DNA from: a phage
Sequence record: OZ346151.1
Strand: one strand, 5' to 3'
Length of the DNA stretch: 64,000 bases
The notes under the pieces are model-generated. The model did no database searches, was not told the origin of the DNA, and saw nothing but the letters and a program-made list of their open reading frames with translations. A program made the position numbers and the translations under genes. Positions 56,794-59,149 of the stretch are shown piece after piece. How positions within the stretch are numbered: the first letter of the stretch is position 1; each line of letters begins with the position of its first letter.

Positions 56794-57144
56794 TCAGTAG
56801 ATGTTTTGTTTAATCTCTATTCCAAACTTCTTGAATGAGTCAGCAGCAAGCATAAATTTACGAGCTGCCGATGGATTAGAAGTATGCACGAAAATAATCA
56901 CGTTGTCAATAAGTGGTGGCTTTCCGAATACAAGTTTCTCCTCTAGCGCAGAGAAGCAGTCGTACCCTTCAAGCACTTCACCTAGATCATTGTCAAAATA
57001 CCACTCAGATACGCGTCTGTAGAGCTTTCTCTTATCATTAAGAAAATCCATAAACTCAGAAGAATTCTTTAGCCACAGAGCGTCTGGGAGTCCATAATCT
57101 GACGGATCTCTAAAATCATCAAGCCACACAATCCACTTCTTCAT
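56794..57144 (-). CDS. hypothetical protein
   Basis: 116 aa, coupled between Sir2 and ligase-like gene. Confidence 0.45.
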   Translation of the reverse strand: MKKWIVWLDDFRDPSDYGLPDALWLKNSSEFMDFLNDKRKLYRRVSEWYFDNDLGEVLEGYDCFSALEEKLVFGKPPLIDNVIIFVHTSNPSAARKFMLAADSFKKFGIEIKQNIY

Positions 57145-58055
57145 TGCATATAGTCCTCGTTGTGGAAATAGTAGTCCAGTATCTCACGACGCTCCTGCTC
57201 TAATAAGCAATTCCACACATCTTCTGTATAGTTGCTACGAATAAATTTTACCATACCGTAAAACTCTTCGTCAACACGTTTAAAGATATCATCATCCCAA
57301 ATCTTCCAAGCTTTACCCCTCATTACTGCCTTCCGTGCCAGATAGTATGGAGACTTGATCTTCAGCTGCAGATCATAAGGGTAGTAAGGCTTACGAATCA
57401 TATACCCTTCACCTCTTGTTTCTGCAGCTAATTCTTTTGCATAGCTGAACGGAATTTCACGCACAGTGTTAGGACGTTTTGCACCAAGGTATTTGGCAAT
57501 CCCATCTAAAGCTGCTTCTGGTAGCATTATTCCAGAATCATTATATCTGCAACCTATCAAATATGCGCCATGGTCTTCTTGAACAATATGCGGATCTGAA
57601 GGGTGACAAATTTCAAACATGAATGTCATGTTTTCATTGCCCATAACCTTCTTGATAAGATCTAAATTACCACATTGCTCTTGGATGGTTTCCTTTGCAA
57701 GGTTACAATATGGAGAATCAAGAGACCCGGTTGTTGAGAACAATAGGTCACCTTTATGAGATGATACCACACCAAGGAATCCGTTCTTTTTCTCTACCGC
57801 AGTCACAAGCTTATTGTCAGGCAGGTTGGTGGAGTTTTCTCCCAAGTTAAACACTTTTGTGAAGGGCCATGCCACAACATTTCCTTCATTACCTACAACA
57901 ATGCCTCGGCACTCCAGTAAACGAGGGGACAAATGCCATAAATTGTTGTAAAATACTTTTCTAGCATATTTATAGATCTTTAACCCGAGATCTGGGTAAT
58001 ACCTACTGGTTACAAGACCTTTGTCAACTAGGTCGTCTGCATTAAAATACTTCAT
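57141..58055 (-). CDS. ATP-dependent RNA ligase-like nucleotidyltransferase (Rnl1-like)
   Basis: ORF track 57141..58076; ATG 58055 preceded by GAGGAA. Motif I VEKKNGFLG, motif IV EGYMIRK, motif V LQLKIKS. Confidence 0.55.
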   Translation of the reverse strand: MKYFNADDLVDKGLVTSRYYPDLGLKIYKYARKVFYNNLWHLSPRLLECRGIVVGNEGNVVAWPFTKVFNLGENSTNLPDNKLVTAVEKKNGFLGVVSSHKGDLLFSTTGSLDSPYCNLAKETIQEQCGNLDLIKKVMGNENMTFMFEICHPSDPHIVQEDHGAYLIGCRYNDSGIMLPEAALDGIAKYLGAKRPNTVREIPFSYAKELAAETRGEGYMIRKPYYPYDLQLKIKSPYYLARKAVMRGKAWKIWDDDIFKRVDEEFYGMVKFIRSNYTEDVWNCLLEQERREILDYYFHNEDYMQ

Positions 58056-58119
58056 TATATGTTCCTCATTTGTCATTTTGTCAGTCTATCCTGCCACACA
58101 AATAACCTAGTGTCAACAC

Positions 58120-58148
58120 TTGAAATTAACAAAACAGTTAGGTATACT
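58120..58148 (+). promoter_or_regulatory. sigma70 promoter (TTGAAA-N17-TATACT) in divergent control region
   Basis: -35 58120-58125, -10 58143-58148; near-palindromic AGTGTCAACACT may also provide a leftward -35. Confidence 0.55.
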
Positions 58149-58176
58149 ACCGTTGAAATTAAAACGGAGGGTCGCT

Positions 58177-58587
58177 ATGTCTAAAATGCTATATATCGTG
58201 CGTGGTCTACCAGGGTCTGGCAAATCAACACTGGCAAATGAGCTATCTTTAGAGGGTCTGTATCCACATTTTGAGAACGACATGTTCTGGTATGACGATG
58301 ACGGCAATTACAACTGGGATGCAAGTAAAGTAACACTCGCAGCAAAATGGTGCAAAGATAACGTAGAAGATATGATGCGTATGGGATACGACCGTATCGT
58401 GGTAAGTAATACGTTTACAAAAGAAAAACATGTGCAGGAATATGTTGACATGGCAATCACTCACGGGTATAGTTATACCGTGATCGTGGTTGAAAACCGC
58501 CACGGTAATAAAAGCATTCATGATGTTCCAGACAAGGTTGTGGATCGTATGGAACGCCAGCTTAAAAACTGCATTAAACTTAAATGA
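58177..58587 (+). CDS. Polynucleotide 5'-kinase (P-loop, T4 Pnk kinase-domain-like)
   Basis: ORF track 58120..58587; ATG 58177 after GGAGG; Walker A GLPGSGKST; IVVSNTF and ENRHGNKSIHDVP resemble T4 Pnk kinase domain as recalled. Confidence 0.65.
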   Translation: MSKMLYIVRGLPGSGKSTLANELSLEGLYPHFENDMFWYDDDGNYNWDASKVTLAAKWCKDNVEDMMRMGYDRIVVSNTFTKEKHVQEYVDMAITHGYSYTVIVVENRHGNKSIHDVPDKVVDRMERQLKNCIKLK

Positions 58588-58594
58588 GGAATGT

Positions 58595-59149
58595 ATGAAA
58601 TACTTTGTAACAAGCGACACACACTTTCTCCACCAGCGGGTCATGGAGTTTGATTCATGTCAAAAACACAGATCTCAGTATGATCACAATCTTGACAGTA
58701 TGAATGCAGGAATCATCGCCGAGTGGAACTCTGTTGTGTCACCTGCAGACACTGTGTTCCACTTGGGAGATATTGCGTGCACTAATGATAAGAATATCAA
58801 CAACTTACTTCCAGATATTCTAAATATGTTGAACGGACATATTATTCTTGTTCGTGGCAACCATGACACAAGGACGACTGTCAGAATTATGAAAGAGTTC
58901 GGTCATGAGGTTGTAGATTATTACGAGCTTCGCCACAACAAGAATTTGATCTGTATGAGCCATTACCAGTTTGCAAAGTGGAACAGAAAGCCTCACGGAT
59001 CAGTCCAACTGTTCGGTCATGCTCACGGAACCACACAACAGTTGTTTGGCAGGCAGCTTGATGTCGGTTGGGATGTGTGGGGGAGACTCTTACCATTAGA
59101 AGAGGCATACCGTATTGCAATGAGTTTTGATATTGACAGCAGGGAGTAA
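58595..59149 (+). CDS. Calcineurin-like metallophosphoesterase
   Basis: ORF track 58490..59149; ATG 58595 after GAGGA; motifs SDTHF, HLGDIA, VRGNHDT, GHAHG. Confidence 0.7.
   Translation: MKYFVTSDTHFLHQRVMEFDSCQKHRSQYDHNLDSMNAGIIAEWNSVVSPADTVFHLGDIACTNDKNINNLLPDILNMLNGHIILVRGNHDTRTTVRIMKEFGHEVVDYYELRHNKNLICMSHYQFAKWNRKPHGSVQLFGHAHGTTQQLFGRQLDVGWDVWGRLLPLEEAYRIAMSFDIDSRE

Follow-up and report, generated by a model that had tools for sequence, protein, structure and literature searches.

The DNA analysed here (the window; 64,000 nucleotides, record OZ346151.1) belongs to a Vequintavirus, i.e., an rV5-like coliphage. It is 99.9% identical to deposited genomes, and across positions 56000-59600 it shares 97.8% identity with phage V5. 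In its region 57141-59149, an RNA ligase gene on the minus strand diverges from the plus-strand genes of a polynucleotide-kinase-type P-loop kinase and of a calcineurin-like metallophosphoesterase (MPE); the catalytic motifs are preserved in each of them. Every open reading frame of this region was found where the original prediction, a reading of the bare sequence, had placed it, and the divergent gene order is confirmed. Ligase, kinase and MPE indeed form a unit, as had been proposed, but half of the module had been missed: the minus-strand ligase operon runs on into the genes of a cREC protein, a zinc-less sirtuin and a MazG-like protein (55297-57144). The ligase stop and the cREC start overlap by 4 nt (ATGA), and the ligase is translationally coupled to the cREC gene. 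A G+C-rich hairpin at 55273-55290, picked up just 3' of the MazG-like gene by a scan for terminator-like structures, is likely the end of this operon. The stretch that separates the divergent ligase and kinase-MPE operons (58077-58176) harbours GGAGG, from which the kinase gene is translated, as a ribosome-binding site and, according to a consensus scan only, a candidate sigma-70-like promoter on the plus strand (TTGAAA-17-TATACT, 58120-58148).

By its motifs, Pfam match and predicted fold, the ligase (57141-58055, minus strand, 304 amino acids) is an Rnl1-type ATP-dependent RNA ligase. The full open reading frame covers 57141-58076 on the minus strand (311 amino acids). Its second ATG, at 58055, is likely the true start, because a GAGGAA ribosome-binding site lies 7 nt upstream and the consensus of the homologues begins there (MKF...). 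The motifs from which the original prediction had recognised an RNA ligase are real: KKNG (57780-57791) is motif I, beginning with K89, EGYMIRK (57390-57410) is motif IV and LKIKS (57351-57365) motif V. FMFEI, as motif III, is also present, and the motif residues are invariant across 50 homologues. The same applies to two Rnl1-specific elements, ECRG and TKVFN, which align to LECRGI and EKFFNL of T4 and are invariant in the homologues; in T4 Rnl1, these N-terminal elements contain R54 (in ECRG) and K75/F77 (in KFFN). The Pfam model RNA_lig_T4_1 (PF09511) is matched from position 1 to 227 of 227 with E=1e-14 and 55.4 bits (cut-off 28.3). The predicted fold is nearest to T4 Rnl1 and fungal Trl1, not to Rnl2, Rnl3, Rnl4, Rnl5 or DNA ligases. 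With the single ligase and kinase sequences as queries, phmmer searches of PDB sequences were of no use; profiles were needed. Judged from sequence and modelled fold, the enzyme is a member of the Rnl1/Trl1-LIG clade of RNA ligases and not a DNA ligase. Its distinctness from the separate DNA ligase at 53387-54670, where Pfam confirms DNA_ligase_A_M and DNA_ligase_OB_2 domains, had been claimed correctly.

A strict orthologue of T4 Rnl1 (RnlA) can be ruled out. The score against the NCBIfam equivalog TIGR02308 is 38.4 bits, the cut-off being 242; the profile alignment stops at residue 249 of T4 Rnl1, and the protein is about 70 residues shorter (304 versus 374). In T4 Rnl1, residues ~255-374 build the C-terminal domain for tRNA specificity; the predicted structure of the window's ligase ends in three short helices only. 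Since most of that domain is missing, tRNA is just a putative substrate. Two basic residues behind motif V (K243 and R247, alignment A1 numbering) are invariant; the sulfate (2'-PO4) site of Trl1 is formed by R334/R337 (PMC10946426). In the closely related phage Alma, the ligase is broken into two frames; the Alma annotation also places a terminator at the position matching the hairpin 55273-55290.

The kinase gene (58177-58587, plus strand) encodes a minimal protein of 136 amino acids; a 155-residue frame starting with TTG at 58120 is an over-extension. The protein matches Pfam AAA_33 with E=1e-10 and contains a P-loop (GLPGSGKST), a candidate catalytic Asp35 (in ENDMF) and an invariant ENRHG. 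The hallmarks of the PNK family are present: the P-loop, an aspartate some 20 residues after it and the fold of a PNK. The predicted fold is nearest to T4 Pnk, the kinase of bacterial Pnkp and polynucleotide/tRNA kinases, with nucleotide kinases far lower. A T4 Pnk-like kinase, as originally predicted, it is, and the fold places it outside the dNMP kinases; structurally, as far as a model can tell, the protein is a polynucleotide kinase. Arg38, which binds the substrate in T4 Pnk, has no counterpart, the aligned position being Trp38; Arg108 in ENRHG is a possible lid arginine, but lies outside the profile-aligned region. The protein consists of the kinase domain alone and has no C-terminal HAD (DxDxT) 3'-phosphatase domain, which rules out a bifunctional kinase-phosphatase of the T4 Pnkp type. 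The kinase homologue of Pakpunavirus likewise lacks a phosphatase domain (PMC12846349).

The MPE gene follows on the same strand (58595-59149, 184 amino acids); here a 219-residue frame from 58490 is the over-extension. That the product is of the calcineurin type had been seen correctly. Pfam yields Metallophos_2 (E=1.9e-6) and Metallophos (E=7e-6), PHROG 547 is matched with E=2e-52, and Aquifex aq_1665 (1XM7) is reached by phmmer at 1.8e-10 and by the family profile at 2.9e-26. The motifs SDTHF, HLGD, GNHD, SHY and GHAHG are intact, and all metal ligands (D8-x-H10, G58-D59, G88-N89-H90-D91, H123, G141-H142-x-H144) are invariant in 44 sequences. By sequence, the protein is classified as a dinuclear metallophosphoesterase of the aq_1665/MPP_AQ1575 subgroup. 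We know of no characterised member of the aq_1665 family, and 1XM7 is a structural-genomics orphan. At E<=1, the MPE did not match the CthPnkp or lambda phosphatase domains by sequence. With neither family nor such a match to go by, it is the gene context that suggests a 3'-end healing enzyme acting on RNA 2',3'-ends. Leads towards DNA repair are too weak: PdeM, a ligase-associated endonuclease, reaches E=2.6e-4 and 20 bits (NCBIfam cut-off 150), and 'Nuclease MPE' E=0.013.

The gene context was surveyed in 80 related metagenomic phage loci (IMG/VR) containing relatives of the window's ligase. In 54 of them, both kinase and MPE lie within 3 kb of the ligase, in several gene orders; counted by clusters formed at 70% ligase identity, these are 26 of 35. 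The three-gene linkage is well beyond chance. Kinase-ligase fusion reading frames occur in 12 further loci of the 80. The MPE gene is directly 3' of the kinase gene in L087-L091, and in L088-L091 the pair adjoins another RNA ligase, of the Rnl2 type. Among GenBank genomes, an uninterrupted MPE-ligase-kinase run occurs in Phapecoctavirus and in Vibrio phage VnaP, where it stands as an isolated island of three genes between portal and terminase; Pakpunavirus and Acinetobacter phage Aci05 have the trio within 1-2 kb. The linkage of ligase, kinase and MPE as a module is conserved across many phage lineages, kinase-ligase fusions included.

Of course, kinase and MPE could act on nucleotides or signalling molecules, e.g., immune cyclic nucleotides or in salvage, and their adjacency to the ligase could be meaningless, or the ligase could mainly be a tail-fibre attachment factor. 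The kinase family is indeed very large (at least 7,988 matches), and the relatives of the MPE include cyclic-nucleotide and glycerophospho-diesterases (GpdQ, Rv0805, YfcE). GenBank records carry an inherited label, 'tail attachment protein', and tail-fibre attachment is the second activity of T4 gp63. The label, however, is only transferred from gp63, whose C-terminal domain is for the most part missing from the window's ligase. The tight, order-shuffled linkage and the fusions across distant phage lineages, the pairing of kinase and MPE with two unrelated RNA ligase families and the polynucleotide-kinase-like fold of the kinase all argue against a small-molecule function. So does PADLOC, which returned weak P-loop matches only; membership in a defence system is also ruled out thereby. 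We regard such functions as very improbable.

It is probable, in our opinion, that the locus encodes a phage RNA "heal-and-seal" repair system with a conserved core of three separate enzymes. From its context, the cluster most likely mends tRNAs cut by bacterial defence nucleases. The aq_1665-type MPE would open and remove a 2',3'-cyclic or 3'-phosphate to yield a 3'-OH. The Pnk-type kinase, which has the fold and catalytic residues for the job, would phosphorylate the 5'-OH of its putative RNA substrate. The ligase, an Rnl1-type enzyme by family, fold and motifs, would become adenylylated at Lys89, transfer the AMP to the 5'-phosphate and seal the break. The cREC, sirtuin and MazG-like proteins probably add another, NAD-linked path by which 2'-phosphate or cyclic-phosphate ends are handled, or remove its by-products, as proposed in PMC9503650. 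Literature searches yielded no experimental work on the RNA ligase or kinase of a Vequintavirus and no biochemical or genetic test of the cluster's proteins or of the heal-and-seal reading.

The original prediction had also stressed the vicinity of a tRNA cluster. Seven tRNA genes do lie 2.9 kb from the MPE gene (62085-62897), and one of them is a long-arm tRNA-Lys with an abnormal insertion of 27 nt in the variable arm. Such proximity, however, is not conserved with the module: of 60 related loci, only about 16 have any tRNA gene at a distance of up to 7 kb, and about 44 have none. These tRNA genes, and the tRNA or tmRNA genes in some related loci, would fit a module that processes or maintains the phage's own RNAs, e.g., by maturing or repairing the nearby tRNAs including the tRNA-Lys, or that repairs damage by a phage RNase during host shut-off. 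The many loci devoid of nearby tRNA genes speak against this idea. Moreover, the anticodon loops of the phage tRNAs near the module show no intron-like interruption, and no phage endoribonuclease was identified beside it in the window by Pfam or PHROG. Service to the phage's own RNAs is very unlikely.

The accessory genes of the ligase operon deserve a closer look. The cREC (cyclic-phosphate processing receiver-like) protein (56794-57144, minus strand, 116 amino acids; cREC_REC in Pfam, E=9e-14; PHROG 1479) has an intact receiver-type acidic site (D9 D10, D51-N-D53, S89, K96) that is invariant in 7 homologues; its role has been predicted (PMC7824862, PMC9503650). The Sir2-family protein (56024-56785, minus strand, 253 amino acids; SIR2 in Pfam, E=7e-28; PHROG 2162, E=1.5e-108) is related to the class III sirtuins (CobB/Sirt5), as aligned to E. 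coli CobB (1s5p), and scores far under the cut-offs of the NCBIfam CobB models. It retains GAGLSAESGIPTFR, FYNARR and the HVHG histidine. NAD-binding motifs and the catalytic His are preserved, and so is Y-x-x-R, by which class III enzymes bind anionic groups; the zinc-binding cysteines are absent. The last gene of the operon (55297-56010, minus strand) encodes a homologue of MazG-like nucleotide pyrophosphohydrolases of 237 amino acids (PHROG 671, E=6e-22), for which Pfam gave no match; it was counted in the V5 neighbourhood by PMC9503650. Ligase, cREC, Sir2 and MazG recur as a set in related phages of ~145 kb (L008, L010, L012, L014, L016, L056), and Phapecoctavirus L003 has a MazG-like homologue ~2.5 kb away from its module. 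Sir2, however, is present in just 11 and cREC in 9 of the 80 related loci, as compared to 54 for kinase plus MPE, which implies that the ligase family normally works without a sirtuin. The three proteins are lineage-restricted accessories of the Vequintavirus ligase operon.

According to Iyer et al. (2022, PMC9503650), the main route may be a fungal/plant-type one via a 2'-phosphate intermediate. The cyclic phosphate would be opened by cREC (or the MPE), which leaves 3'-OH,2'-PO4; the kinase would phosphorylate the 5'-OH; the ligase would seal and leave the 2'-PO4 at the junction; and the sirtuin, analogous but not homologous to Tpt1/KptA, would move it to NAD+. ADP-ribose cyclic phosphate or related by-products would be cleared by MazG and cREC. 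The common operon with its ligase-cREC overlap, the recurrence of the gene set and the preserved sites of Sir2 and cREC comply with this published proposal. Also, the chemistry of sirtuins, in which C1'' of NAD+ is attacked first and the 2''-OH attacks next, formally parallels the mechanism of Tpt1. The rarity of Sir2 and cREC among the related loci, however, speaks against it, as does the ligase family profile, which by sequence reaches T4 Rnl1 but not Trl1. Further, T4 Rnl1 seals 2'-OH ends efficiently (PMC10946426), and no sirtuin described as an RNA 2'-phosphotransferase was found in the literature. As the main route, we consider this sequence of events rather unlikely. Similarly doubtful is a mixed system with a T4-type branch using the aq_1665-type MPE and, beside it, a fungal-type branch, in which the zinc-less class-III-like sirtuin would replace Tpt1/KptA as an NAD+-dependent RNA 2'-phosphotransferase and cREC would be a metal-independent 2',3'-cyclic phosphodiesterase. 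The sirtuin/cREC idea has been published as a prediction (PMC9503650). An experimental test of the presumed 2'-phosphotransferase was not found in the literature.

Cleavage of tRNA is a common bacterial strategy against phages, and phage-encoded RNA repair is the classic counter-measure, which to our knowledge has been tested in T4 only. The heal-and-seal module would be a widespread alternative built from other parts, with a distribution over Vequintaviruses, Phapecoctaviruses, Pakpunaviruses, Vibrio and Acinetobacter phages and many metagenomic contigs. If proven, it would disclose a first function for the aq_1665 MPE family and for the very large family of mini-kinases, and it would help to predict which strains with tRNA-cleaving defences fall within the host range of rV5-like and PAK_P-like phages used in therapy. 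Experimental proof would also show whether RNA 2'-phosphates can be the substrate of a sirtuin.

How does the module compare with established repair systems? It shares with T4 Pnkp plus Rnl1 the three activities needed, an Rnl1-clade ligase, the T4 Pnk kinase fold and the presumed purpose, the reversal of damage by anticodon nucleases. It is not a simple T4 copy, as had rightly been stated. The kinase is free-standing, while T4 Pnkp combines kinase and HAD phosphatase; 3'-healing is assigned to an unrelated dinuclear MPE in a separate gene, which replaces the HAD phosphatase; the ligase has lost most of the tRNA-specificity domain and stays far under the RnlA cut-off; and T4 has no counterpart of the cREC, Sir2 and MazG genes. 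The three-enzyme core equally copies the function of bacterial Pnkp. The Pnkp of Clostridium thermocellum, however, is one polypeptide, while the window has three separate genes, an MPE of the aq_1665 instead of the lambda-phosphatase type and a ligase like Rnl1 instead of Rnl4. A Hen1 methyltransferase was not among the genes annotated at 52048-62897, and a Pfam search with ten of their proteins detected no methyltransferase domain. These points set the module apart from the Pnkp/Hen1 and Pnkp1-Rnl-Hen1 repair systems, and membership in Pnkp/Hen1 is ruled out. From the fungal/plant tRNA ligase Trl1 (LIG-KIN-CPD) plus the 2'-phosphotransferase Tpt1, the module differs in having neither a 2H-type CPD domain nor a Tpt1/KptA homologue.

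The closest comparison is the published one, and the novelty that the original prediction implied has to be withdrawn. GenBank entries 99.9% identical to the window already annotate the genes as RNA ligase, polynucleotide kinase and phosphoesterase, and Iyer, Burroughs, Anantharaman and Aravind (2022, Viruses 14:1977; PMC9503650) described the V5-prototype neighbourhood as a predicted NAD-using RNA repair system; as a discovery, the window adds little. A comparable RNA repair reading exists for Pakpunavirus (PMC12846349). The sirtuin-centred type 2 neighbourhood of PMC9503650 comprises a sirtuin, a T4-like tRNA ligase, cREC, a nucleotide kinase, MazG and, facultatively, a calcineurin-like phosphoesterase. 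With the neighbourhood of V5 and Proteus phage Mydo described there, the window shares the locus, the phage genus and six out of six genes at 55297-59149. The gene content is identical; across the relatives of the ligase, kinase and MPE are the common partners, sirtuin and cREC the occasional ones.

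The ligase, the kinase and the calcineurin-like metallophosphoesterase (MPE) encoded at 57141-59149 form one unit. In Phapecoctavirus iGC_PHA_EC001 they follow each other without gaps in the order MPE-ligase-kinase, in Pakpunavirus PAK_P4 and Acinetobacter phage Aci05 all three lie within 1-2 kb, and in Vibrio phage VnaP they make up an isolated island between portal and terminase genes (all confirmed by tblastn). Of 80 IMG/VR loci with a ligase relative (37-90% identity), 54 carry kinase as well as MPE at most 3 kb from the ligase, arranged in no fewer than three orders. In 12 more, a single ORF of ~420-430 aa joins the kinase to the ligase N-terminus; the AAA_33 domain of one such fusion was confirmed by Pfam. 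Grouped at 70% identity, the ligases form 35 clusters, 26 of which contain both partners.

The best-supported reading, and a probable one, is a three-enzyme pathway that heals and seals broken RNA. The MPE would remove a 2',3'-cyclic or 3'-phosphate, the kinase would phosphorylate the 5'-OH, and the Rnl1-type ligase would seal the break. Family, fold, catalytic residues and conserved linkage are observed, whereas substrates, sequence of steps and a role in counter-defence are inferred. The original prediction had read the genes likewise, a sensible view for which the context offers good support.

The three ORFs exist as predicted. The kinase gene (58177-58587, plus strand, 136 aa) has a GGAGG upstream and is followed by the MPE gene (58595-59149, plus strand, 184 aa); the longer TTG ORFs of both in a mechanical ORF list are over-extensions. 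The kinase matches AAA_33 of Pfam (E=1e-10) and, in PHROGs, 'ATPase' (3e-58) ahead of 'polynucleotide kinase' (2e-10). Its fold is that of PNK, which, together with the kinase-ligase fusions, speaks against a nucleotide or signalling role of kinase and MPE, a minor alternative. In freshwater contigs (L088-L091, 4001-7977), the gene directly after the kinase homologue encodes an MPE belonging to the same family (E about 1e-51), the kinase stop overlapping the MPE start; 1.8 kb downstream lies a gene for an RNA ligase of the Rnl2 type (PF09414 plus PHA02142 OB domain). Kinase and MPE thus are a portable end-healing pair that accompanies two unrelated RNA ligase families. On three metagenomic phage contigs, the kinase-ligase fusion ORF is followed at 4.4-5.3 kb by a gene for tmRNA (L055, 10399-10801; L057, 13168-13570; L060, 12208-12604), another translation-rescue function near RNA repair genes.

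The predicted linkage of three genes stands, but the unit here is a six-gene cluster. The ligase stop overlaps the start of a gene for a cREC ('cyclic-phosphate processing receiver') protein of 116 aa (Pfam E=9e-14) with an invariant receiver-type acidic site. Next come Sir2 (253 aa) and a MazG-like protein (PHROG 671), all within 55297-57144, and a hairpin found by scanning (55273-55290), where a terminator is annotated in phage Alma, probably ends the operon. The zinc cysteines of CobB are absent from the Sir2 protein, whereas its NAD-binding motifs, catalytic His and class III FYNARR motif are retained. The accessory genes are confined to certain lineages: 11 of the 80 loci have Sir2 and 9 have cREC.

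A 2'-phosphate/NAD branch through cREC and Sir2, the main alternative for this phage, is mechanistically plausible; sirtuins act on NAD+ by a chemistry parallel to that of Tpt1. The sirtuin has been proposed to remove RNA 2'-phosphates in the manner of KptA/Tpt1 (Iyer et al. 2022, PMC9503650), and the cREC domain and its linkage to RNA ligases were defined in the same authors' jumbo-phage paper of 2021 (PMC7824862). This branch is compatible with healing and sealing. As the principal route here it is, however, unlikely: the majority of the ligase's relatives do without a sirtuin, and in sequence the ligase itself stands closer to T4 Rnl1, an enzyme that seals 2'-OH ends (PMC10946426). In Pseudomonas phage PAK_P4 (5322-8833), ligase and kinase are directly followed by ribose-phosphate pyrophosphokinase, nicotinamide phosphoribosyltransferase and a Macro-domain protein. 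Nicotinamide phosphoribosyltransferase belongs to NAD salvage, and these neighbours are another tie of the RNA repair module to NAD/ADP-ribose metabolism, without a sirtuin.

The tRNA genes predicted nearby are present (62085-62897), but about 44 of 60 related loci have none within 7 kb, which weighs against the minor alternative that the module processes the phage's own tRNAs. One of these tRNAs (62554-62650, plus strand, 97 nt, Rfam tRNA 35.5 bits) has the anticodon loop UUUUUAA of Lys(UUU), and its variable region carries 27 inserted nt able to fold into a 5-bp stem (GACGA/UCGUU). ARAGORN calls it 'tRNA-???' with anticodon 'atcc'; its counterpart in phage CarlMeissner is annotated as tRNA-Lys. 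Class-II-like features are unusual in a tRNA-Lys, and both PrrC and PARIS target tRNA-Lys(UUU).

The region 56000-59600 shares 99.9% identity with Escherichia phages isim, Alma, nimi and CarlMeissner (Bas48) and 97.8% with V5, which makes the window a Vequintavirus, an rV5-like E. coli myovirus. The matching records label the ligase 'RNA ligase' or 'RNA ligase 1 and tail attachment protein', the kinase 'polynucleotide kinase' or 'ATPase', and the MPE 'putative phosphoesterase'. Eighteen 'Campylobacter phage' records also match this region at megablast level, 16 of them with Campylobacter jejuni as host; this odd label may reflect mislabelling or contamination. In vB_Eco_Alma (OV101294) two overlapping CDS in different frames take the place of a single ligase gene (2642-3578), owing to either a frameshift or a sequencing error; a genuine split would hint that the phage can do without the ligase in the laboratory. 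Elsewhere in the window, the separate DNA ligase (53387-54670) was confirmed. An HNH homing-endonuclease gene (52048-52563, minus strand, PHROG 5200, E=3.5e-72) lies between the endolysin/small-ORF region and a C5-cytosine methyltransferase gene (CarlMeissner annotation). Four tandem 21-nt repeats (59621-59704; unit ACTGTCCGTGATACGGACACT, containing an inverted repeat) just downstream of an HTH protein (59197-59547; PHROGs 'replication initiation protein') look iteron-like and may mark an origin of replication.

The cluster is already annotated in a well-sequenced phage genus and already interpreted in print. In Pakpunavirus Adele, the homologous kinase and ligase were read in 2025 as tRNA repair enzymes, the kinase lacking a 3'-phosphatase domain (PMC12846349). 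In the literature searched, none of these proteins was the subject of experiments; the remaining value of the module is experimental.

The MPE matches Metallophos_2/Metallophos of Pfam and 'phosphoesterase' of PHROGs (2e-52), and every residue of its dinuclear metal site is invariant across 44 homologues. Its nearest solved structure is Aquifex aq_1665 (1XM7; E=1.8e-10 by single sequence, 2.9e-26 by profile), a structural-genomics protein without assigned function; GpdQ, MJ0936, YfcE and Rv0805 are remoter relatives. At E<=1 neither the CthPnkp nor the lambda phosphatase domain was matched. The MPE is therefore a putative 3'-end healing enzyme by gene context and by the precedent of CthPnkp, where an MPE performs this step (PMC2190708).

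The ligase ORF (57141-58076, minus strand) most likely yields 304 aa, since a start at the second ATG (58055) is backed by a GAGGAA ribosome-binding site 7 nt ahead of it and by the homologue consensus, which begins there (MKF...). The predicted motifs KKNG, EGYMIRK and LKIKS are all present, as are the Rnl1-specific ECRG and TKVFN elements, and RNA_lig_T4_1 is covered over the whole profile (E=1e-14). The PHROGs label is 'RNA ligase and tail fiber protein attachment catalyst' (2e-65). A gp63-like tail-fibre role is a minor alternative against which, as against the other minor ones, the data weigh. T4 Rnl1 exceeds the ligase by ~70 residues, and alignment to the profile ends at T4 residue 249, so the ligase lacks most of the C-terminal domain. 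In T4 Rnl1 this domain is the source of tRNA specificity. With 38 bits against a cut-off of 242 in the NCBIfam equivalog model, a strict T4 Rnl1 orthologue is ruled out, and the module is, as predicted, not a simple T4 copy.
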